The notes under the pieces were generated by a model. It ran no database searches. It saw only the letters and a list, made by a program, of their open reading frames with translations, and had not been told where the DNA came from. From a virus, in IMG/VR virus record IMGVR_UViG_3300032069_000007, positions 1 through 64,000 of that record: DNA of 64,000 bases; one strand, 5' to 3'. Positions 1,342 through 51,639 of the stretch are shown here, piece by piece (position 1 is the stretch's first letter; each line of letters opens with the position of its first letter). The position numbers and the translations under genes were made by a program.

Positions 1342-2475
1342 ATGGCAACAGAAACAAGTCAAAAAGAGACGGCGCTCGCAACGTTCGGCGGGTTCGCGGT
1401 GGATGAGATTATCCCAAGGAAGCTCTATCGGGACCGCAAGTTCCGCGAGCACTTCAACGTCCTCTTTAGTGAGAGCGTGTTCGAGATGGTCCCACCAATC
1501 TACCGACCGATGATCGGGATGGTTGTGATTGACCTCTCGGGTGAGACGTACGCAATCCCCGGGAGCCAGGATCGCGGCCTCTCAAAGGTCGCTATCTCCA
1601 AAATCGGAAACGAGAGGGGCCTATCCTTCGAGGCTCCAATCCAAGTATCGCCCCACTCTGATGTGAACAACTACGAGTTCTGCTCCTTTGCCCTCGGTCG
1701 CGCGTACGATGGGAACTTCCAGCGCGTCCCCGGAACCGCGCACTGGCACTGGGAAGTTGCGCTGGATAAGAATGAGCGCATTGGGATCAAGAAGGGCGAG
1801 AAGGACCCGAAGGCATATGCGCTTCGCCGGACAAGGGAAGAGAGGGACTATGCAGCAGAGCGGACAGCCACCAGGTCGATGCTGAGCGCGGCGCGATTCT
1901 TCTGCTCGCTGAAGACTTCCTATACAGTCGAAGAAGTGAAAAAGCCGTTCCTTGTCGCCAAACTCGTCCCGAACACGGACGATCCGGCAATACATGCGGC
2001 GATGGTTCAGAATGCTGTCCTCGGGGTTCAGATGCTGTATCCCGCTGCGCCCCTGCCCGCCGAGCTCGTCGCGGCCCTGCCGGTTGAGGTCGCCCCAGAC
2101 CTCCCGAATGGCGATGAAAACCAGGAGGAGCCGCAAGCGACCACGGACCCCCAGAACCCCGAACCCCAGGCAACCGATGCCCCACCGCCGGTCGACGAGC
2201 AGGTGCCGGTTGACGCAGAGACCAGTGAAGGCGAACCCCTGAGTCTTGTCCATCCGACTCCAGCGGAACAGCGCCAGGCCGAGAAACGCGAAATAATCGA
2301 GGACCTGAACGCCTCGGCCGCTGGCGGACAACTTGACAAGGCCACGCTACGGGACATCATACGCGACGTCCTGGGTTTGCGGAACGGGCAGGCCACGCCC
2401 CACCTGTCGCTTCTCGACCTGCCGAGTTTGCGTAGCGTCCGGGCGCGTGCGAGAGAGGCGAAGGCAAGGGCATGA
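1342..2475 (+). CDS. conserved-looking phage protein with acidic/Pro linker; possible recombination (annealing) protein
   Basis: Strong RBS aaggag; position upstream of sbcD/sbcC; function inferred from context only. Confidence 0.5.
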   Translation: MATETSQKETALATFGGFAVDEIIPRKLYRDRKFREHFNVLFSESVFEMVPPIYRPMIGMVVIDLSGETYAIPGSQDRGLSKVAISKIGNERGLSFEAPIQVSPHSDVNNYEFCSFALGRAYDGNFQRVPGTAHWHWEVALDKNERIGIKKGEKDPKAYALRRTREERDYAAERTATRSMLSAARFFCSLKTSYTVEEVKKPFLVAKLVPNTDDPAIHAAMVQNAVLGVQMLYPAAPLPAELVAALPVEVAPDLPNGDENQEEPQATTDPQNPEPQATDAPPPVDEQVPVDAETSEGEPLSLVHPTPAEQRQAEKREIIEDLNASAAGGQLDKATLRDIIRDVLGLRNGQATPHLSLLDLPSLRSVRARAREAKARA

Positions 2476-3005
2476 TAACCAGAACTGTCGTGGACGGCGA
2501 AACGACGAGGCTGGAATTGTCCATAGAGGGAAGTGTCGATGCTCTGTGGGTTTCCCTGTCCAGTCTCCCGCAATCTCGCGACCGCTACCCGCACCTAGAT
2601 GAAATCCACCCTTTGAGTGTCGATCCGGTCATCAGGGGGTCAGTTTGGCTCACTGGGAACCAAAGCTGCGCTGCCGAGAAGAACGAACGCGGGCCGTTGC
2701 GGTTGATCTGTGTGCGCGGCGGGGATCACTCCTGGCCGGACGGGATCGAACCGCTTATCGTCGACCTTGGCCAGAACCTCATGGCGAGGGCCAACGAGGT
2801 CGAGCCCCTGGTTCGACTAATCGAGCAGCAGTCGCAATCACTTGTGGACGCGGTCCTCGGTATAGATGCGCAACTCGCCGAACTCCGAGAGAGGGCCGAC
2901 CTCTGTTGGGAACGTTCTCTACCGCCGAAACCAGCGACTACCGAACCGGGACGTGGCATCCGATGGCCGTGGTCTCTGCGCAGAAGGGAGCCGGAATCGC
3001 CATGA
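2472..3005 (+). CDS. hypothetical protein
   Basis: ATGA overlaps with both neighbours. Confidence 0.6.
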   Translation: MITRTVVDGETTRLELSIEGSVDALWVSLSSLPQSRDRYPHLDEIHPLSVDPVIRGSVWLTGNQSCAAEKNERGPLRLICVRGGDHSWPDGIEPLIVDLGQNLMARANEVEPLVRLIEQQSQSLVDAVLGIDAQLAELRERADLCWERSLPPKPATTEPGRGIRWPWSLRRREPESP

Positions 3006-4177
3006 GGATCGCTGCGTTTGCGGACTGTCACATTGGCAACTACGGGACAAAACTCGACCCCGAGACGGGTCTCAACGCGCGATTGATTGACTGCGTGAAC
3101 TCGCTGCGGTTTGTGTGCGAGGATGCCAAGGCGCGCGGGGCTGAGGTTATACTGTTCGCCGGGGACATGTTCCGATCGCCCACAGCAAAACCGACGCCGA
3201 CGGAGCTGGTGTTGGCGGCGGACGGCCTGGTCGGCGACCTCCCGGTGATAGGGATTGATGGGAACCACGACGTCCCCCGATCAATCGGAGAGGTAACTGC
3301 CCTGGCACCCTTGCCGAGCAACGGGTGGTCTGAGAGGACCAGGCCAGAGATTGAGATCGTGGAGTCAGAGGAGTGGCGTCTTCAGCTCGCCTACCTCCCC
3401 TGGCCGAACAGGTCGGCGCTGGCGGCAGCGGTGCCGGATTACCACAAGGTCTCGCCGCAGGATGCGGATCGGCTTGTCGCGGCGCATCTGCAGAGCATCC
3501 TGCGGGGCCTGGCGGCCCAACTCAATCCCTCGATGCCCTCGATCCTCCTGGCGCACATCTCAATAGACAGCGCAGAGGTCGGGGCCGAGCGGCAGATCAT
3601 GGCCGGGCGGGACATCACGATTCCGCTCTCGGCAATCCCGGAGGAGTTCGGGTTCGCGGTTCTCGGTCACGTCCACAAACCCCAGGACTTCGCGCGTCAG
3701 GGTAGGCCGAACGTGTTCTACTGCGGTTCGACCGAGCGGGTGGATTTTGGAGAGGAAACGGAAGAAAAGTCCTACGTCCTCCTGGACACGGACGCGGGAA
3801 CCTGGGAGCGAGTGCCGATTCCGTGCAGGGAATACAAGACGTTCAACTATGAACTTTGCGCGGACGGTCACGAGGGCGAGGATTTCGACTGCAACATGGA
3901 CCGCCAGGCCATCTGCCGTGTGAGGATCAAGCGCCCAGAGAACATGCGCCCAGATTATGCCAAACTCCAGAAATGGGCCGAGGAGTCCGGGTCTTGGGAC
4001 TTCAGGGGCTTCGTCGAGGAGGTCGAGCGCACCGCGGCGGTCCGGTCCAAAGAGATTGTTGAGGCCAAGTCGCTGACGGAACTCCTGGAGGTCTGGCACG
4101 AAGCAAAAGGCTGCGGTGTGCCGCTCGACCACCTTACCACCGCTGCGGTTAGCCTGGAGAGGACGGTGCTCAAATGA
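3002..4177 (+). CDS. sbcD: SbcD/Mre11-family metallophosphoesterase nuclease
   Basis: Motifs ADCHIG, AGDMF, GNHD, LAH, LGHVHKPQ, YCGS; true start ATG 3002 (MRIAAFADCH). Confidence 0.92.
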   Translation: MRIAAFADCHIGNYGTKLDPETGLNARLIDCVNSLRFVCEDAKARGAEVILFAGDMFRSPTAKPTPTELVLAADGLVGDLPVIGIDGNHDVPRSIGEVTALAPLPSNGWSERTRPEIEIVESEEWRLQLAYLPWPNRSALAAAVPDYHKVSPQDADRLVAAHLQSILRGLAAQLNPSMPSILLAHISIDSAEVGAERQIMAGRDITIPLSAIPEEFGFAVLGHVHKPQDFARQGRPNVFYCGSTERVDFGEETEEKSYVLLDTDAGTWERVPIPCREYKTFNYELCADGHEGEDFDCNMDRQAICRVRIKRPENMRPDYAKLQKWAEESGSWDFRGFVEEVERTAAVRSKEIVEAKSLTELLEVWHEAKGCGVPLDHLTTAAVSLERTVLK

Positions 4178-6288
4178 GACCCACTCGATTGACCCTACAG
4201 AACTATAGGAGCTTTCAAGACGTTGACCTGGACCTCTCGGGGATCGAGGCTGCGGCCATAACCGGGGCAAATGGCGCGGGGAAGAGCTGCCTCGCTGAGA
4301 GCGTTCTCTACGCGCTCTTTGGCGAGGGGCGCTCGTCAACCGTAGATGGGGTCGTCCGACTCGGGGAGCGCGACTCCAGCGTGAAACTGGAGTATCTCCA
4401 CGACGGCGCCACGTACTCGGTGATCCGGAAGCGCAGCCGGGGCCAGAAAAGTGAGCTGCAGTACCTAATGCGCGGGCGCGACGACGATCTTTGGCGGGCG
4501 CTCTCCGAGGCATCAATCGCAGAAACGCAGGCGAAGATCATCAAGGACTTGGCGATGGACGGCGCACTCTTCCGCCATTCCAGCTTCGTAGGCCAGGGGG
4601 AGAGCGCCGCCTTCTGCGAGGCGACGCCGGCTGAGCGTAAGGCCGTGCTCTACGGGATCCTGGAGGATAGACTTGCGCAATTCGCAGCGCTACACGAGGC
4701 CGCGAAGGCGACTGTGAAGGCACTCGACGAGGCGCTGGCGGTAGCGGCTGCCAGTCGTGAGCGGCTCCAGACCCTGGTTGCGATGCGTGAGACCACTGAG
4801 ACAGCGAGGGCTGGCGCCGAGGAACAACTCGATCTCGCCCGCGGCAAGGTTGCGAAGGAGGAAGAGCGGACAAACACCCTGCGTGAGTCGCTCGCACAGC
4901 ATGAGGCCGCCCTGAACCGCTTGGCCGCTGCCAGAGCGGAGTGTACCAAACTGGAGGGCGAGGGCGCCGATCTCGCACGCCAACAAGATGAGTGGCAAAC
5001 CATCCTCGATGCCGACCAGGCATTACTGCGGGAGGCCGAGGTCATCCGGCGAGATGCCGAGGTAGCCGACCGGCTGGAGGCCGACCTTAAAGAGTTTGCC
5101 GAGAGGCGGCAGGCACTGCAGTTGGCCGAATCTGCGCACGAACGCGCCGAGGCCGACTGCAAGGCCGCCCAGGATCAGTACAACCGGGCACTCGACCACG
5201 CAGGCGCGGCCGGTCGAGTCCCGTGCCTGGAGACGGACCTAGCGCCGCGTTGCCCCCTGCTGCTCCTTGCGCAGTCCACCGCATCCGACGACGAACTGAC
5301 GATCCTCGATGAGCACTGCAAGAAGGCAGACCAGGCCCACCGGGAGGCCTACGCCGCGTGGGAGAGTGCCGATAGCGCCTACGATGAGAGGGCCCACAGG
5401 GAGGCCCAGGCAGACTACGACACCCGCGTTTGGGCCCGGCCAGAACTCGCCAACCTGGCCGGTGCGGAGGCGCGCGCGGAGGGGGCGAAGACTGCCCTGC
5501 GGGAAGTCGCGAAGCGGCAGGAAACGACCGAGCGGGAATTGAGTGAACTCCGTCAGGAATGCACCGACCTGGACCTCAAGACCGCCGGTGCCGAGGCCCT
5601 CGCCGAATCTCTGCGCGTTGCTGAAGCACTCCTCGAGGCCGCGCGCTCCGAGGTCGAACAGTACACTCGCGAGGTCGCCATCAACGACGAGCGTCTGCGG
5701 CAGGTCGCGGAGGCCTGGGTCGAGCTCGAGCACGTCGAGCAAGAGGTTGCCAACCAAGGGCGGACTCGCACGATCTATGCGACACTCCAGGAGGCGTTTG
5801 GCCGCGACGGAATCCCCGCGCTCATCATTGATGCGACAGTGCCGGCGCTCGAGGAGATCGCCAACGACATACTTGCTGGCTTGTCCGATGCTGGGATGAG
5901 CCTGAAATTCGCCACGCAGCGGCTCAAGGTCACAGGCGGGATCGCCGAGACGTTGGACATCATCGTCTCAGACCAGCTCGGGGAGCGCCCCTATGAGGAT
6001 TTTTCCGGCGGCGAGAAACTCAGGGTAGACCTGGCTGTGCGCATCGCCCTGGGGCGGTTGTTGGCACAGAGGACTGGGGCGCCGGTCCAACTTCTAGTTT
6101 TGGATGAAGCCTGCGCGCCCCTGGATCAACCTGGTGAGGACGCGCTTGTGGACTGTGTCAACAAACTCTCCTCCACTTTCGCATGCATCCTGGCGATCAG
6201 CCATCGCGAATCACTCCGAGACAGGTTGCCGCAGCAACTTCTTGTCAGCAAGGGGCCGGGCGGTTCTGTGGTGGAGGTGGTGCAGTGA
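4174..6288 (+). CDS. sbcC: SbcC/Rad50-family SMC ATPase
   Basis: Walker A GANGAGKS, Q-loop VGQG, coiled coil, signature FSGGE, Walker B LVLDE, ISH. Confidence 0.93.
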   Translation: MRPTRLTLQNYRSFQDVDLDLSGIEAAAITGANGAGKSCLAESVLYALFGEGRSSTVDGVVRLGERDSSVKLEYLHDGATYSVIRKRSRGQKSELQYLMRGRDDDLWRALSEASIAETQAKIIKDLAMDGALFRHSSFVGQGESAAFCEATPAERKAVLYGILEDRLAQFAALHEAAKATVKALDEALAVAAASRERLQTLVAMRETTETARAGAEEQLDLARGKVAKEEERTNTLRESLAQHEAALNRLAAARAECTKLEGEGADLARQQDEWQTILDADQALLREAEVIRRDAEVADRLEADLKEFAERRQALQLAESAHERAEADCKAAQDQYNRALDHAGAAGRVPCLETDLAPRCPLLLLAQSTASDDELTILDEHCKKADQAHREAYAAWESADSAYDERAHREAQADYDTRVWARPELANLAGAEARAEGAKTALREVAKRQETTERELSELRQECTDLDLKTAGAEALAESLRVAEALLEAARSEVEQYTREVAINDERLRQVAEAWVELEHVEQEVANQGRTRTIYATLQEAFGRDGIPALIIDATVPALEEIANDILAGLSDAGMSLKFATQRLKVTGGIAETLDIIVSDQLGERPYEDFSGGEKLRVDLAVRIALGRLLAQRTGAPVQLLVLDEACAPLDQPGEDALVDCVNKLSSTFACILAISHRESLRDRLPQQLLVSKGPGGSVVEVVQ

Positions 6289-43547: not shown

Positions 43548-43828
43548 CTGTACAATATGACACTCCACCGGACATGATGCCGGAGATCAACCGCCTTCTG
43601 GTGCTCGCCGTCGGGTCGGTGAGGAGGGCGCATTTCGCGCAGGTGTTCCGGGCCGAGGTCGGGCCGCTGTTCGAGGGCCTGTCGAGCCTCCGGTACGACC
43701 AGATCGAGGAAGCGTTCCTGGACCAGATGGAGGCGGCATTCGACCTAGCTGGCAGTGTGCGGGATGCCTTTCAACTTAGAGATCGATTGACAGCGGAGAG
43801 TGACCCACAAGATGGCAACCGTGGTTAA
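43544..43828 (+). CDS. small hypothetical protein
   Basis: Coupled ORF. Confidence 0.5.
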   Translation: MTVQYDTPPDMMPEINRLLVLAVGSVRRAHFAQVFRAEVGPLFEGLSSLRYDQIEEAFLDQMEAAFDLAGSVRDAFQLRDRLTAESDPQDGNRG

Positions 43829-46800
43829 GGTCTTAGGCAGGCAGGGCAACCGGCTCAACATCGCGCGCCGGGAGTGCTCCTGCGAGGTCAAGTTGCCGTT
43901 TGGCCTGCGCTTCACCGACGGCGGCAAGATGCACCGGGTCCACGTCTGCCCGCAGTGCGAGCGCCTCCACGGGTACGAGGACATCCGTAAGGGAACCCTG
44001 CTGCGCAGTCAAGTCGTCTTCGCCCCCGGGTTGCCGCTCTTATCGAAGGCACTCGAGCTCAAGGCCGGCCAGCGCTGGGTAACGCTGCATCCGGATGCCG
44101 AGAACCCAGAAAACTACGTCCACGTCCTGATCCAAGAGCACCCCGATGGCACAGCAAGCGTCATTCGGGGAGCTGAGGGCAAGCTCAACTACCTGCGGCT
44201 GACAAAACTCAAATCGCCGGAGGACTGGCAGGAATCCGGAAAGCGCCTTGCCGAGGAGCGCGAGAGGCGGCGGAAAGAGCGTGAGGCCGCGATGACCGAA
44301 GAGGAGCGCCAGACCACGCACGACGTAGAAGCTGGCATACTGGCCCGCAAGGAGCTGGAGGACGCCAAGTACGTATCGCAGGTGATGGAGGCGCACGGGA
44401 TAGGCGAGTCCGACTGGAAGCTCGAAGAAAAGACCTTGGTAGCCCTGCCGGGGAAGTCACGCGAGATGGCCGAGAAGCAGCACCTCCGCAAGATGGTCAC
44501 GGTGGCGAACAAGCTCGTGGACCGCACGCGCAAGGATCTGCTGGACGCTCACGACCGATTGGCCGAAGCCGAGCTCGGCGATATGCCGCTCGGGGACGTA
44601 GGTATCGAGCGGCCACTCGAGGGCAAAGGAAGCGGGTATATCGCCGCAGTCGAGAACGCGGCAGAGGCGGCTGGTCTAAGCGTCAGGCAGAAGATCGCGG
44701 AGAAGGAGGACATAAGCTGGAGAGGGTTCCTTGACCGAAGCGACGGCGATCCTCTCAAGGCTGCCGAGAAGCTCGCAGCGGTCCAGCGCCTGCACGCAGC
44801 GCTCCGCGAGGTTCGTGAACCGATCAAGGAGCTCAGAACCGCCGGCCTATTGGATAGGCCGCTGAAACCGGAACTTCCGCCAACCGAGAAGATCGCTGAC
44901 ATCCTCGTGGCGCAGAAGCAGCACACCGACTACGAGCGGCAGTACCGACAGGTGAAGGGTGAGATAGAGGAACACGGGGTTCCCAAGGCCGCTCTTGAGG
45001 TCGTGACGGAACTCAGGCCGGAGGAGGTCGAGGAGATCATCAGGGCCGCTGCCGCAAAGCCCTTAGACGAGGAAGCCGCCAAGGACAAGGTCGCCGAGGA
45101 ACTGGCCGAGGATGCGATGCAGCGTGCGGCCGAGAGGCTGCTTGCGACCGCCGACAAGGAGGAGGCCCTTCAGCCACTCCGCAAATACGTGACGATGGGG
45201 CATTACGACAGTTTGAACCGCTCCTGCCTCGCGGCAACGCGCACCCCCCTGCCCCTCGGCCGTCTTCAGGCCGACATCCTGGGACCAGAGGCCAGTGCCC
45301 AGGTGCTCGCCGCCCATCTCAGAGAAACGCTCTCGGACACGGATTACAGGGCAGCACTCCACGGCGTTGCCAACTACCATCGCAACTATCAGCGGCAGGC
45401 AAGCGAACAGGCCCTCCAGTCGTACGCGTCGACAAAGCAGCAGGCCGACGAACTCTCCGAGCGCCCGATATCCGACATCGGGTCTCTTGTTGAGGCACAG
45501 GTTGCGAATGCCGACCGGATTGACCTCGTTGACGAGGCGCGGGAGACTCTCGGCGTGGCGCTCGGACGGCTGGAAGCTACGGCTGCGCTTGTCCAAGCGC
45601 TTGAGCTTCAACACGCACGCAAGGGAGTGCCGGAAGAGCTGCGGGTTCCGCTCGGTGCTATCTCAAATCAGCAGGCCATTGCGCAAGCGCGCGTGCTGGG
45701 ACTCAGCCACCCTGTCATGGAGGAGATGGAGCCGGGGGTGGAACCCGATTACCGAATCGACTCCGACGGCGTCAACAAGTTCCTGACTATCTTGCCGAAC
45801 GGGGCAGCCAAGCTCGTGACGAAGCCCGATCGGGAGCTCGCAGAGAAGCACGCACTCGCAACCGAGATCAAATCAGGTAGGCGGGATCAGAGGCACTGGC
45901 TCCCCGCAGGAATTGTCTCGAGGCCGCAGAGCACATTCGAGGATCCCGAGAAGCGCGCGGTGCAGTTCTCGGAACCGCTCGAACTCAGGCCCAAAATGCG
46001 GTATGCGGAGGTCAACCGCGGACTCAAGCACTATATCGCGCGGCGTCTAGCGGACGGCCAGGACCCTGAGAGCCTGCGTTCCGACCTGCTTTCGGCAGAG
46101 TTCACCGCGGACCTGCCGGACGATCTTCTGGGAGACGGCGGCGGATCCTACTACAAGGCCCTAAGCGACCTCGGCTGGTTCACCTACAACCAGGTAGAAA
46201 ACAAGTCCCCGGAGGGGCTGGAGGCCATAGCCGAACACGCAGTTGAGGAGTACGAACGCGAACACGGGGCGTCTGAGGAGGTCGCCGCCCTCAACTCGCA
46301 GTCCATCCCACTGAAAGACAGCCCGGTGTGCTACGAGGCTCTCTACAGGGCCGTTGCGGCTCACCCCGAAGCCAGGGTAGCGTTCAAGGCTCTCTCCGAG
46401 CTGACGCCGGAGGAGCGCGGGCTGATCCAGCGCTTCTTCTACCGGGTCATGACCGAGGAGAAGTCGCCCCAGGAAGAGGCTGAGGAGAAGAGGCTTACCG
46501 CAAGACCGACCCAGGCCCCGGCTAGGCAGGAGGCGCTGTGGGCCGAGCAAGAGGTGCCCGCAGAGACGACGGAGGCCCGGAAACCCGCCAAGCCAGGACG
46601 CGAGACCCCGTGGACCCGCTACGTCAAGGCGCAGGGATCTGTCCAACATGCCTATGAGAGTGTCCAGGACGTCATGAGAGGCGCCGTCTCGGCGCAGTTC
46701 GCCAAGCACATGGGAGGCATACTTGGCCGCGAGCTGAAGACCGGCAACAAGCGCATCGCAAACTGGGATGACCACCTTCTCGGGCTCGTTTCTCCAGAAC

Positions 46801-49800
46801 GACAACAGCAGCTCCTGGAGGCGCGGCAGGCAGAAATGGCGCGCAAGCACGCGAGGGTCGCGACTCGCGCCCGGGGCAAGTTCGCAACGGAGGAGCGGCT
46901 CGGCATCAGGCGTGAACGCGCGGAGGCCCTCGATCGGGCCATCCGTGGAGCTGCGCTCTCGCTGTTCAAGGAGAAGCCGCTGCCCGCGATCGAGCGGGTT
47001 ACGATCGGCGCCCGGGCGGAGAAACAGCTCCAGTCCATCTTCCCCTACGTTGCCCAGAACTTTGAGGTTGACCGGCCGGTAGACATCCCTCACGATGTAA
47101 ATATGAGCGAAGGTGAGATGGTAAAGCAGCAGCGCGCGGTGAAGCTGATCGAGGGCCTGAAGCGGCTTTCGCTCAACCTGGGCGTCGGCACCGGCAAGAC
47201 CCTGGTCGCGTTGGGCAGCTTCTCAGACCTGCAAGCACGCGGCGCAGTCAACCGCGCCATCTTCGCTGTGCCAGCCAGCCTTACGGCGCAGTTCGGGTGC
47301 GTTCGGGGCGACACGGAACTCTGTGACCCTATCCGCGGACTCACCATGACATTTGAGGAGTGGCTGCTTTCGGGCCTGAGGCCCTTTGTCTGGACCCGGG
47401 CCGCGGGTGGACAAGTAACCATCGAACTGGCGTCTCGCCCATTCCTGAAGGGCCTTGATCGGATGTATCGCGTGGAGACGGACGATGGAGCGTCAATTGT
47501 TGTGACCGCAAAGCATCGCTTCCTTACGCCGAAGGGTTGGAGGCCGTTGTGCGAGTTGCCCGTCGGCTCGCTTGTTTCTTGCGCCGTCGCTCTGAAGCGT
47601 GCAACAAGCGATGCTCACGGTGGCTCCCGAGCAACTGGAGATTATCGATCCGGTTGTCATCCTTTTGGCCATTACGGTGATGAACGAGCTCATCCGGCTC
47701 CAGATAACGGCCAACGTGCTTTTCCATTATCAGGCGGTGCTCGAGATAGTAACCCAGTGAATTTGCCTGAGGGTGGTCCGGCACAAACAACGCGATGTAG
47801 CCAGCAGAACGCCGAATCCGACCTCCCTTCCAGTTGTTTGCCTTTTCGCCCTTGTGACGGTTGGCATTGCCGAGTCTTGGAACGTCGAGCTTCTTCAGGC
47901 GAAGCCGAACCGCATCCTCGCTTGCGCCGTTATCCAAAATGCGGGCTATCTCCGAACACGACCGCCCCTGCTCAGCCAACTCTCGCAACCGCTCGTCGCT
48001 CCACTCGTACCCAGGTGGCCTGCGCCCGTTCAGGCGGAGTTTCCGCATTCGACGAAGGACGGTCGCTTGTGTTGTCCCAAAGTAACGAGCCAGCCAAGAT
48101 AGCGATCTCCCTTCTTGAACGAAGCGGCGGAGGTCGTTCTCATCTATGGAATGAGGTCGACGACCAGTGCGCAGAGCCTCGGAAAGCCCAAGAGCCCTCA
48201 CCCGACGAGCCAAGTAGCTCTGACTCCTCCCGGTCTGCCGTGACATCCAAATGCAGGTTCGATCCTCGGCAACCCAATCCCGCAGTTGCTGATCCGGGAC
48301 GGCGGCGTATTCTGGGAGACTTGGCGGAGTCAGTCCCAATTCAAGCAAGCGCCGCCGAAGCGTGTGCCGTGCAAGGCCGAATTGGCGCTCCATCCAAGCC
48401 AGCGACCTTCCCTGGCTGTGGTAGCGCCTCAATGCCGTTTCATCAACCTGTTTCGTCGGTTGGCTCATGCACCCAGTATAGCACAATTCGCAACATCTCG
48501 GAAGTGGGGCTTGCCCTTGTCTTCGACATCGCAGTTGCACGGACACACAACTACTGGGCTGGCGGGTTCTGGAATCACAATTCGGAAGCCTTGAGGTTCT
48601 ACGAACCTGGCAGGTTCAAATGGTTCGCCGACCCGACGGCCAGCGCTGAGGACCGCCGGGCCGCCTATACTGATCCCGATCGGCAGATATGCGTTGTCAC
48701 CCATCAGGCCCTCAGAGACGACCTCGTCTGGGCGGTGGGCCAGGATCGGTTCGGGGGCAATGTACGAAAAGCGGAAGACTGGATGCGTGCGGCTCCCGAG
48801 GACGAACGCAGGCACGAGGTACGTGCGGCAGCGGAGAAACAAGGGTGGAAGTGGGACATGTGTTTGCCGTACGAGGCTCCGGTGGCGATGGCGGACGGAA
48901 CAACTCGCAGGATCGGAGATCTCGTGGAATCCCGATCAAGCGATCCCGTGCTGTCACTCAACCTTCAGAGCGGTAGGTTGGAGGCCAAGTCAGTGTCCGA
49001 TTGGTTGCGCTTGGAGTGCCCGCACCCCCAACTCTACCGAATCCTCGCGGGCGAAGCAAGCGTGATATGCACAGGTGATCATAAGATATGGACACTCGGT
49101 AGGGGGTATGTCCGCGCTTGCGAGGTGCGAGTAGGTGACCGACTTTTGGCTTTACAACCGACCGACTCTCTGCTAGAATTGGAACACGATACCTTGAACC
49201 GGGGTGACAGAAATGGCAGTGAGGGATATGTTGGTCGGAACGCTTCTGGGCGATGCCTCGATGGGCCAGAGCGCTGCCGGGACGCCGCGAGTAACGATCA
49301 AGCACTGTCCCGCGCAAGAGGATTATCTATTCCACAAGTACGATCGACTGAGATCAATATGCCCATCTGCGCCGAAGTTCGTCAGGAACGGGGGATGGGG
49401 CGGCGACCTCTGGGTCTTTCAGACGAGCTGCCTGGATTGGTTGCGGCAGTACCGGGAGATGATGTGGCGCGACGGGAGGCGTCGGATTGCCGACGCCGTG
49501 AAGGATCACTTGACCCCGGAGGCACTGGGTTACTGGTATATGGACGACGGTTCGCTGTCGAACGGGTGTGCCACACTCAGCACACACAGGTATTTGCGGG
49601 AAGATCAACGGAAGCTGCGATCTTGGATCCGCCAACTGTACGAGATCGAGGTTCTGGAACGCTACGACCGAAGGCACGACCGGTTTTATATGGCGATGCG
49701 CAGAGAGGCGACGCGCCGGTTTGTGGCACTTCTGAGTCCCCACGTGCCGGAGTCCATGAGATACAAGCTGAATGTGCCGAATGCGGAGTTGCTGCCGTAC

Positions 49801-51371
49801 ATAGCGCCAACCCCGGAGGCCCTGCCGGGACGACTGTGCGTGATCTGCGGTCAGCGGTATGCCTTTCAGCAGGTCTGCGACTCTCCGGAATGCAAGCAGA
49901 CCAAGAGGGACTGCGACAACCGGCGTTGGTACGACGCGCACGCTGCCGAGATCTCGGCGAGAACTCACGAGGAGCATCTGCGGAATCTCGGAGAGGGAAC
50001 GTGCGAGGTGTGCAAGAGTCAATTCCTCCGCACCAGTCGCCTCCATGTACGCACGTGCTCGGCGGCATGTCGAGCGGAGTGGAAACGCCGTCGGGCCCTG
50101 GCATGGTACTACCAGAACTGCGATGCCATGAAGCACCAGTAACCTCAGTCGAGTTCACAGATGCGCCTGCGTTTGTCTATGACATAACGGTGGAGGAGAA
50201 CCACAACTTCTTCGGCTACGGCCTCCTCGTCTCCAACTGTCTTGTTGATGAGGGTCAGGATATTCTCCGCCGGCTTCATAAAGCCGACAGCCTGATGCAG
50301 CACGCCATCGACGCTCTGTCATATCACACTCCCTATTACATCTATTCCACGGCCGACCCCGTCAAGAACGACTGGTCGGAAGTCCACGACGTTTTGGCAA
50401 AGGTAGCACCCGACCGTTATCCCGCCGCCAGCCGGGAGGAGTTCCACCGCCGTTACGGAATCGACTGCCTCCAGACTCAGCAGGCGCTCAGACAGGAAAT
50501 GCACCCATTCGCCTATGCCGAGCGTATTCCTCTGGGCATCGTGGCAAGCAGGAGGCAGGAGCCAGTGCAGCTCTCTGCCCCAGAGCAATCCGAGTACGAC
50601 GGTGTCCTCCAGGCATATCGAACCGCGCAGACGGCACGGCGCGCCGGAAAGGTAGACGATGCCGTCCCCGCGTTGCGGCAGATGAACCCCCGTGCCTTCG
50701 AGGGCAAAAACGAAGCCGAACAGCGGACAGAGGCGGGGAGGATGTTGCAGTTCCTCTCGGCCGCCAGAGACTCCGCGCTGGACCGAATCGTCAACGCAGG
50801 TTCGGTGCGCGGGGCAGGCGTGCGCATACCGGCCAAACTTGAAACATTGCACGCGTTCGTGCAGTCACGAATAGCAGAGAAGGGCGCTGGCCTCGTCTTC
50901 GCGCACTCGATAGAGGCGCAGAACCAGATCGCGGGATACCTCAAGAGCAAGGGGATCAAGGTGGGCACCCTCTCAGGGTCTGACCCCGGGGCGAAACGCG
51001 AGCGCACGCGCCAGGACTTTCAGGCCGGCAAGTTTGACGTCCTCTGCCTCAGCGATGCTGGATCGACGGGGCTCAACTTGCAGAGGGCCGCATTTTGCTG
51101 TAACTTCGACTCGCCGTATACGGCGAAGACCTACGAGCAGCGGATCGGCCGCATGGAGCGGCTGGGCCAGACCAACCCTGATATGAAGGTTCTGGATCTG
51201 GTTACGACCACTCCCTACGAGCGCGGCCGGAGGCGACTCCTGGAGCGCAAGGGGAAGCTGCGGGAGGCGCTGACCGCGCCTTACGAAATGCTTGATGACA
51301 CCGATTTGGGGAGAGAAATCGCTGAGGCGCGAAGCAGTGAGATCGAGAAGGCAGTACTTAAAGCCGCTTAG
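43812..51371 (+). CDS. giant SNF2-like helicase protein with two inteins
   Basis: [49 protein letters not shown]. Confidence 0.88.
47524..48468 (-). CDS. HTH-repeat HNH endonuclease encoded antisense within intein 1
   Basis: Four ~45-aa HTH repeats, G....[39 protein letters not shown]. Confidence 0.88.
48475..48503 (-). promoter_or_regulatory. antisense promoter for nested HNH (leaderless)
   Basis: TTCCGA-17bp-TATACT with TG extension; ATG 6 nt later. Confidence 0.65.
49151..49179 (+). promoter_or_regulatory. internal promoter for nested LAGLIDADG gene
   Basis: TTTACA-17bp-TAGAAT with TG extension; SD GGGGTGA at 49201. Confidence 0.72.
49213..50142 (+). CDS. LAGLIDADG homing endonuclease with C-terminal Zn ribbons, in +1 frame within intein 2
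   Basis: [11 protein letters not shown]...[24 protein letters not shown]; CVICG, CEVC...TCSAAC. Confidence 0.9.
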   Translation: MAVRDMLVGTLLGDASMGQSAAGTPRVTIKHCPAQEDYLFHKYDRLRSICPSAPKFVRNGGWGGDLWVFQTSCLDWLRQYREMMWRDGRRRIADAVKDHLTPEALGYWYMDDGSLSNGCATLSTHRYLREDQRKLRSWIRQLYEIEVLERYDRRHDRFYMAMRREATRRFVALLSPHVPESMRYKLNVPNAELLPYIAPTPEALPGRLCVICGQRYAFQQVCDSPECKQTKRDCDNRRWYDAHAAEISARTHEEHLRNLGEGTCEVCKSQFLRTSRLHVRTCSAACRAEWKRRRALAWYYQNCDAMKHQ

Positions 51372-51372
51372 T

Positions 51373-51639
51373 ATGGATCACCAAGAGGTTCGTAAGATGC
51401 TTGGTTGGCAGCGGCAACTAGCCCTTATATTCGACGCGTTCGAGCGTGTGCGTTGGGCCGAGGTCATGCGAGAACTTCGGAGGCTCGTCTCCGGCGGCAC
51501 AAGAATGGCTGAGGTGATGCAGCACTGGGTTATCGTCGAAGATGCGTGCGGTCTACGCCTGATGACGCGCGAGCGGGCGGAGGCCGAGTTGGAGGCTTGT
51601 GTCGTGATTCCGCAGGACTTGTACAGACCGCACGGATAA
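51373..51639 (+). CDS. small hypothetical protein
   Basis: ATG immediately after helicase stop. Confidence 0.5.
   Translation: MDHQEVRKMLGWQRQLALIFDAFERVRWAEVMRELRRLVSGGTRMAEVMQHWVIVEDACGLRLMTRERAEAELEACVVIPQDLYRPHG

Follow-up and report, generated by a model that had tools for sequence, protein, structure and literature searches.

Inteins whose interior carries a nuclease gene on the opposite strand are rare but have been known for some time: antisense LAGLIDADG genes lie within the DnaX intein of Synechocystis and the SpoVR-like intein of Chloroflexus (Gorbalenya, 1998; Gogarten, 2002; both as cited in bioRxiv 10.1101/2025.01.02.630785). More recently, 63 actinophage inteins with non-canonical nucleases were reported, among them antisense LAGLIDADG types (including inteins of minor capsid genes), antisense VSR-like types and out-of-frame EndoVII-like types, and an origin was proposed in which a free-standing nuclease gene invades an intein whose own frame must then be kept open (Gosselin et al., bioRxiv 10.1101/2025.01.02.630785). 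Two further systems bear on such arrangements. In "fractured genes", a free-standing endonuclease gene is located between the halves of a split intein, and the accompanying model links free-standing nucleases with inteins (Dassa et al., 2009; PMC2677866), while in the ShiLan element an out-of-frame HNH gene is hidden in a phage methylase gene that has no intein (PMC11855218). The subject of the present analysis is an intein of a phage helicase gene that contains, on its opposite strand, a gene for a helix-turn-helix (HTH) HNH nuclease. It lies in a 64,000-nucleotide stretch ("the window"), with a guanine-plus-cytosine (GC) content of 61%, of the IMG/VR virus record IMGVR_UViG_3300032069_000007, a record of 80,287 bases that is rated 93% complete and derives from sediment metagenomes. 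The arrangement is, in our judgment, probably a composite mobile element, that is, a class-1 mini-intein which carries an antisense homing gene of the free-standing HTH-HNH_3 type at the usual endonuclease-insertion point.

Nearly all long open reading frames (ORFs) of the window lie on the plus strand, and the host gene is one of these. Its product is matched by the DNA helicase family PHROG 62 at both ends and by Helicase_C near the C-terminus, with two Pfam Intein_splicing matches inside the ORF. The features on which the argument depends are as follows.

43800-51371, plus strand: host gene, a 2523-residue phage DNA helicase with a SNF2-like core, carrying two inteins.
47298-48581, plus strand: intein 1, 428 residues, class 1, in helicase motif Ia (QFG|SEA).
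47298-47594, plus strand: N-terminal splicing half of intein 1, residues 1-99, beta-rich.
47595-48467, plus strand: host-frame filler, residues 100-390, with neither stops nor motifs and predicted to be disordered.
48468-48581, plus strand: C-terminal splicing half, residues 391-428, blocks F and G.
47524-48468, minus strand: nested antisense gene, 314 residues, four HTH modules and HNH_3; ATG at 48468, stop codon TAA at 47526-47524.
47890-48441, minus strand: HTH array, four tandem three-helix modules (residues 10-43, 59-92, 110-143 and 158-193).
47542-47745, minus strand: HNH_3 core, beta-beta-alpha, residues 242-309.
48475-48503, minus strand: promoter-like element of the nested gene, TTCCGA (48503-48498), 17 nucleotides, TGc-TATACT (-10 hexamer at 48480-48475), 6 nucleotides, ATG.

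The splicing residues of a class-1 intein are all in place: Cys1, the block-B residues T70-A-K-H73, the terminal pair H427-N428, and Ser at +1 of the extein. The visible termini are the CVRGDT start and the FWNHN|S end, after which the extein resumes as SEALRF, and H73 is invariant across an alignment of six such inteins. Pfam Intein_splicing is matched at both ends of intein 1, and the Ssp DnaB mini-intein (1mi8) aligns to its N-terminal 95 and C-terminal 35 residues, which flank the point at which the endonuclease of 1mi8 was deleted; the C-terminal half corresponds to residues 119-153 of 1mi8. In an AlphaFold (AF2) model built on the six related inteins, the joined splicing halves fold as a Hint domain, with mean pLDDT values (predicted local distance difference test), taken over ten-residue blocks, of 74-97 in the N-terminal and 88-97 in the C-terminal half. 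A Foldseek search with the confident part of the model ranked the mini-inteins of Mtu RecA and Ssp DnaB first (E 1e-8; template modelling score, normalized to the target, 0.6-0.67). The filler, at a pLDDT of about 28, is without secondary structure in the same model, and the only constraint visible in it is that of staying open. As stops are kept out of the host frame, the precursor should be translatable straight through.

On the opposite strand, the 314-residue protein is matched by Pfam HNH_3 (PF13392) at E 3.4e-10 and 39.9 bits, well over the cut-off of 24.8, and by HTH_20, HTH_28 and HTH_7 above their cut-offs, with GcrA and HTH_50 falling below theirs. Thirteen PHROG families match it, 11 of which are HNH endonucleases (best E 7e-25), and its closest annotated relatives are free-standing HNH endonucleases of phages (226 phage records). 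Six residues of the HNH core, namely H263, H264, N266, N272, N276 and H286, are invariant across four homologues, and the AF2 model of the core consists of strands at 261-264 and 277-280 followed by a helix at 283-309, the expected beta-beta-alpha order. The four HTH modules are modelled at pLDDT 70-86, resemble the HTH domains of GcrA, resolvase and Tc3 in structure comparison (Z 6-7.4), and presumably constitute a DNA-recognition array. The start codon (ATG, 48468) lines up with the beginning of two homologous proteins, P0004 (56% identical over the full length) and that of the metagenomic locus L016 (43%). The nuclease ORF fills the disordered part of the intein almost exactly; the poorly conserved C-terminal tail of the nuclease alone reaches into the final strands of the N-terminal splicing half. 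The original prediction had described an intact intein at 47298-48581 with some 290 residues of filler, the reverse complement of which would encode a 314-residue HTH-repeat HNH protein; the interval proved exact, the filler measures 291 residues, and each part of that description is borne out by the profile matches and models given above.

That two proteins are written on one stretch of DNA is not what the composition of that DNA would produce unaided. When the synonymous codons of the HNH gene were permuted, a mean of 7.3 stops was expected in the host frame, where none is seen, and 0 of 5000 permutations left that frame free of stops; redrawing the codons from the codon usage of the exteins gave a mean of 6.7 stops and, again, 0 of 5000 stop-free frames. 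With no stops against about seven expected, selection acting on synonymous positions in the nuclease gene keeps the host frame open. The antisense frame in use is also not the most permissive, given that 7.3 stops are expected in it and 4.0 in another. Which of the two frames encodes the constrained protein can be read from the GC content by codon position, which follows a coding-like pattern in the HNH frame (0.65/0.49/0.63) that the host frame of the same bases lacks (0.65/0.63/0.49). Likewise, when the window is compared with L016 over the same DNA, the HNH frame is 43.4% identical and the host-frame filler 22.7%; the HNH frame is therefore the constrained one, kept about as well as the exteins (47-53%), and by this comparison is under purifying selection.

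Evidence that the element moves comes from assembled sequence of other samples. Logan contigs of three sediment sequencing runs, here called X1, X2 and X3, were compared with the window over positions 46000-51400, leaving aside those parts that X2 and X3 do not cover. A single contig of X1, which is probably the sample that the record derives from, spans the region. In X2, which represents another sample and another study, a 66,480-base contig (depth 15.9) is near-identical to the window and is without either intein: it differs at one position within 46000-47269 (1270 bp) and at one within 48592-48820 (229 bp), and it skips 47270-48591, having in their place 38 other letters that read VPASLTGQFG|AEALRF in frame, an empty allele. 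Relative to the flanks of intein 1 in the window, these 38 letters hold 14 differences, 11 of which are synonymous, the remainder replacing Ala by Gly at position -4 and Ser by Ala at +1. They fall into two patches.

47270-47297, plus strand: upstream extein patch, 9 differences from the X2 allele (8 synonymous and Ala to Gly); putatively one half of the homing site and a co-conversion tract.
48582-48591, plus strand: downstream extein patch, 5 differences; Ser at +1 with the intein, Ala without it.

The 38-bp patch of substitutions looks like a co-conversion tract left by a divergent donor, and presence and absence of the element in near-identical genomes suggest recent movement of an element that is still mobile. 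At the level of contigs, then, both the presence/absence polymorphism and the converted flanks of a mobile homing gene are found. X2 also yields small contigs of low depth (2-2.8x) identical to the interiors of both inteins and, because these pieces are of low depth, the intein-bearing form is a minority in that sample. As a separate observation, GC content at third codon positions is 0.65 in the splicing part of intein 1 and 0.63 in the HNH gene, against 0.71-0.78 in the helicase exteins, consistent with a foreign and fairly recent arrival.

In the host family the element is uncommon at its site. An exhaustive HMMER search with window positions 46800-50399 provides the counts used here, all of which refer to the 150 representatives listed. 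In about 130 of these, neither of the two intein sites of the window has an insertion, to the residue; separate from them are 13 with an intein at an upstream site, the Walker A loop. The gapless intein-free homologue P0008 (about 70% identical) carries the uninterrupted VGQFG| junction, and the +1 residue in intein-free P0008 and P0010 is A or G. Two representatives, P0007 and P0009, have an intein at exactly the site of intein 1 (inserts of 425 and 325 residues, respectively), with fillers of odd composition.

The same layout recurs in other loci. Metagenome contigs containing a degenerate DNA pattern of the intein N-terminus include L016, which is the contig of P0007, and two contigs of the Joint Genome Institute, L013 and L014. 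The intein of L016 (2520-3794) again holds an antisense ORF, this time for a 310-residue HTH-HNH protein, and its splicing halves are 61% and 55% identical to those of the window. L014 has a related intein in a different gene, where it interrupts the Walker A loop (GPSS|C...HHN|SGKS) and contains an HNH_3 gene in antisense that has one HTH. A survey of IMG/VR with an HNH alignment returned 54 loci, most of them free-standing HNH genes, and revealed inteins with antisense HNH genes in L022, L034 and L040/L041; Pfam identifies the host of L022 as the large subunit of a terminase (GK|C...HHN|T), that of L041 matches terminase weakly, and that of L034 has a P-loop context only. Scans of viral contigs were less productive: the intein N-terminus pattern gave no match, P0007 (like P0009 against genome contigs) gave nothing useful, the C-extein gave distant helicases only, and the HNH domain by itself gave one weak locus.

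The layout is thus known from DNA in six loci, the window and five metagenomic ones, at the helicase site and at P-loop sites. In all six, codon position 1 of the host lies opposite codon position 1 of the HNH gene, and the host frame is free of stops where 3-8 would be expected (p = 0.003 for L016, 0.008 for L014, <0.0004 for L022, 0.014 for L034 and <0.0004 for L041). The HNH cores are only 43-70% identical across the six, and the closest intein pairs (window and L016; L014 and L034) are also the closest HNH pairs. This shared frame relation and these congruent pairs fit a single lineage of composite elements that moved between host genes. They also speak against one part of the original prediction, namely that the locus represents an early stage in the association of intein and endonuclease: six loci with diversified cores and a constant frame relation indicate a stable, persistent lineage instead.

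Protein sequences extend the pattern further. Starting from a host-frame protein, the residues that an antisense reading would permit were decoded, a procedure for which the window served as control (314 of 314 residues compatible). Decoding gave values of 114-141 for the filler of P0007 and 84-94 for that of P0009, against 35 or less for shuffles, in both cases for an HTH-HNH protein homologous to that of the window; the result for P0007 was later confirmed from DNA (L016). By this approach we infer that 10 of the 13 Walker A-loop inteins of the helicase family (P0018, P0025, P0029, P0036, P0042, P0059, P0065, P0074, P0076 and P0083) encode an HNH_3 core in antisense with the same frame relation, which would make 12 of the 15 intein-bearing representatives capable of encoding such a core. 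The Walker A-loop inteins end in ...HHN|SGK[ST], and their site has the same context as the P-loop inteins L014, L034 and L041, which fits a switch of exteins through P-loop similarity of the kind proposed by Gosselin et al. (bioRxiv 10.1101/2025.01.02.630785).

The IMG/VR survey also returned HNH genes nested in frames that show no intein. In L017 (1886-2857, minus strand), L028 (635-2767, minus), L054 (2-3853, minus) and L057 (1960-3534, plus), all set aside for lack of an intein signature, a long frame stays open over an antisense or out-of-frame HNH_3 gene, with neither a Pfam match nor intein termini; two of the four lie in DNA of 38-40% GC, where such openness is unexpected. In L058, an N6_N4 DNA methylase frame (1579-4353, plus) is open across an out-of-frame HNH_3 gene at 2069-2869 (plus) and has no intein match, an arrangement that looks like the hidden HNH of ShiLan (PMC11855218).

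With respect to expression, the original prediction had given the nested gene a promoter of its own, TTCCGA-17-TATACT, and an ATG 6 nucleotides downstream. The element is present on the minus strand as described, inside the codons of intein block F, and includes an extended -10 (TGcTATACT); as a match to the sigma-70 consensus it is weak, with a score of 8/12. Both strands of the 64-kb window together contain just seven sequences of the form TGNTANA[AC]T, two of them directly preceding the two nested nuclease genes, the second of which belongs to intein 2 (see below). Comparable elements are found in four relatives: TTGCGA-17-TGcTATAAT lies 15 nucleotides before the first ATG of the nested gene in L016; in L022, TGcTATAAT lies 29 nucleotides upstream of the gene and is followed by an AAGGA; and in L014 and L034, -35/-10 pairs end 6-7 nucleotides before the ATG. 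Since promoter-like elements precede the nested gene here and in these four relatives, independent antisense transcription is both plausible and recurrent. A nearly leaderless nuclease message is plausible for the phage of the window, and such a reading fits three of the six loci.

If the composite operates as its parts suggest, the disordered loop would let the two Hint halves dock and splice out, by which helicase motif Ia would be restored. The nuclease would be made separately, from an antisense transcript initiated at the extended -10 promoter within the block-F codons, and its four HTH modules would read a long site across the empty QFG|AEA junction, where the HNH core would nick or cut a co-infecting genome that is free of the intein. 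Repair would then copy in the intein and the nuclease gene along with a few tens of flanking bases. The claim that the intein acts as a container for an independently expressed antisense nuclease thus fits the intact splicing halves, the open and otherwise unconstrained filler, and a nuclease with its own start and promoter-like element; it also agrees with the model already in print (bioRxiv 10.1101/2025.01.02.630785), and it is retained here apart from the notion of an early stage. Several points weigh against this reading. The promoter scanner gave no call at the element of the HNH gene, the -35 hexamer of which is poor. Searches with the whole chain of the nuclease model (Foldseek/VIA) returned lists filled by HTH matches with no solved HNH structure, although the small core was barely probed by them, so that the nuclease assignment rests on sequence profiles; a sequence search of the PDB with the nuclease gave a designed HTH repeat only. 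Either gain in one lineage or loss by conversion from an empty allele would fit the Logan contigs. Lastly, splicing, antisense expression and cleavage of the target are each something that we infer from the sequence.

The alternatives differ in how much of this evidence they leave standing. Open antisense frames are common in DNA of 61% GC, and many spurious ones, 100-400 residues in length, exist elsewhere in the window, such that either the intein frame or the HNH ORF might be accidental. Against this stand significant profile matches in both frames, the 0 of 5000 synonymous shuffles that leave the host frame open, and repetition of the stop-free result in five other loci, some of lower GC; chance is accordingly so improbable that it was ruled out, and an artefact of assembly was likewise considered and rejected. 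That the nested gene is a silent relic, either an in-frame HNH that became inverted or a gene since dead, leaving a long-looped mini-intein that passes on by vertical descent only, would agree with the weak -35 and with the decay expected once homing stops (bioRxiv 10.1101/2025.01.02.630785). This too is improbable, because the ORF is full-length and free of stops in homologues that are only 43-56% identical, because catalytic residues, start position and promoter-like element are conserved, and because presence and absence between near-identical genomes suggest recent movement.

More serious, though still unlikely, is the possibility that the nuclease gene is an independent selfish element sheltering in a tolerant intein loop and cutting another site or a neighbouring gene, in which case intein and nuclease would not form a functional homing unit. 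The closest annotated relatives of the nuclease being free-standing phage HNH genes would be in keeping with this, as would the existence of nested or hidden HNH genes that lack an intein (L058 in a DNA methylase; the ShiLan element, PMC11855218). Yet intein and HNH gene occur together in six loci with the same frame relation and congruent closest pairs, they are jointly present or absent in X1 and X2, and the conversion patch has the intein site at its centre. There are phage HNH proteins that assist terminases. As several sister elements reside in terminase or P-loop genes, one might suppose that the HNH protein serves the phage itself, for instance in DNA processing with terminase or helicase, and is merely housed in the intein; but a near-identical phage does without the element, the host genes differ, and most members of the helicase family lack it, and we give this idea very little credence. 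A composite of mini-intein and antisense homing gene remains the reading that we favour. A bolder version of it is possible but, on balance, doubtful: that composites of intein and antisense HNH_3 form a large overlooked lineage, the dominant intein type in the helicase and terminase genes of environmental phages at their P-loop and helicase-motif sites, still homing and with a functional orientation. In that case, the samples may show the element midway through its spread into a population of sediment phages, and the antisense orientation may uncouple nuclease expression from host transcription, for example through timing or transcriptional interference.

The second intein of the helicase gene is non-canonical in a different manner.

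48861-50237, plus strand: intein 2, 459 residues, in motif II (WDM|C...SN|CLVDEGQ), with an unconstrained open filler.
49204-50142, plus strand, +1 frame: LAGLIDADG_2 gene in intein 2 (Pfam E 2.4e-28), complete, with Cys-rich motifs at the C-terminus.
49151-49179, plus strand: promoter-like element of the LAGLIDADG_2 gene, TTTACA-17-TGcTAGAAT; promoter scan 10/12 with TG.

Here again the host frame has no stops against 8.7 expected, and 0 of 5000 permutations are stop-free. At this site the X2 contig has 232 divergent letters in place of 1615. Further downstream, within 50436-51400, seven of the 11 differences between the window and X2 fall in 50492-50610 and the remainder thin out with distance, like a longer gradient of co-conversion on that side.

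Separately encoded nucleases within inteins bear on how self-splicing domains and homing nucleases came to be joined, and the present locus offers a clean natural test set for this question: a single gene with two inteins that are non-canonical in different ways, a constraint to stay open that can be measured, sister elements in other host genes, and an empty allele of a near-identical genome that gives the likely target sequence. As standard gene calling lets one strand win, such nucleases are hidden from it, and surveys of inteins that consider in-frame domains only would, for the same reason, misclassify these elements as endonuclease-less or as bearing an "unknown domain". For engineering, a mini-intein predicted to tolerate a disordered insert of 291 residues, and a putative four-HTH HNH nuclease with a long target, may be of interest.

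Measured against the systems described at the outset, the locus is a non-canonical antisense-endonuclease intein, with a complete antisense nuclease ORF between blocks B and F and an uninterrupted host frame. With the antisense-LAGLIDADG inteins it shares an antisense nuclease ORF flanked by the splicing blocks, an open host frame, a middle without recognisable structure and signs of continued transfer; it differs in its nuclease (HNH_3 with four HTH modules) and host (a giant helicase, encoded by an uncultivated phage from sediment), and in that selection to keep the frame open is documented for it, together with a natural empty allele. Like the VSR-like and EndoVII-like inteins of actinophages, it nests a nuclease of free-standing type as a separate ORF, and intein 2, with its +1-frame LAGLIDADG gene, parallels the out-of-frame EndoVII-like case; the nuclease folds differ, however, and neither an antisense HNH nor a same-strand, out-of-frame LAGLIDADG is on the list of that preprint. 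Fractured genes likewise place a separate nuclease gene at the endonuclease position of an intein, but in those the frame of the host is split and splicing proceeds in trans, whereas no stop interrupts the window intein, which is thus not split and, its host frame being continuous, would splice in cis. In ShiLan, too, an HNH gene is read in a different frame from its host gene, which itself remains free of stops; splicing domains are absent from that system, while the gene of the window is antisense and flanked by complete intein blocks. Canonical in-frame HNH inteins and free-standing phage HNH_3 genes belong to the same catalytic family, although the nuclease studied here is neither fused to the intein polypeptide nor intergenic.

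A full-text literature search, the coverage of which is incomplete and which is therefore no proof, turned up no account of an intein with an HNH gene in antisense. The novelty that the original prediction implied for an antisense nuclease in an intein was nonetheless overstated, given that LAGLIDADG (1998) and VSR-like (2025) examples are known; since the nuclease is HNH_3 and neither of these, the window intein falls outside the sub-types described so far. As far as can be told, what the locus adds to the known systems is the combination of HNH_3 and an HTH array in the antisense-intein layout, a quantified constraint to stay open, recurrence across helicase and P-loop/terminase genes of environmental phages, a natural empty allele, and, in the same gene, a second intein with a +1-frame LAGLIDADG nuclease.

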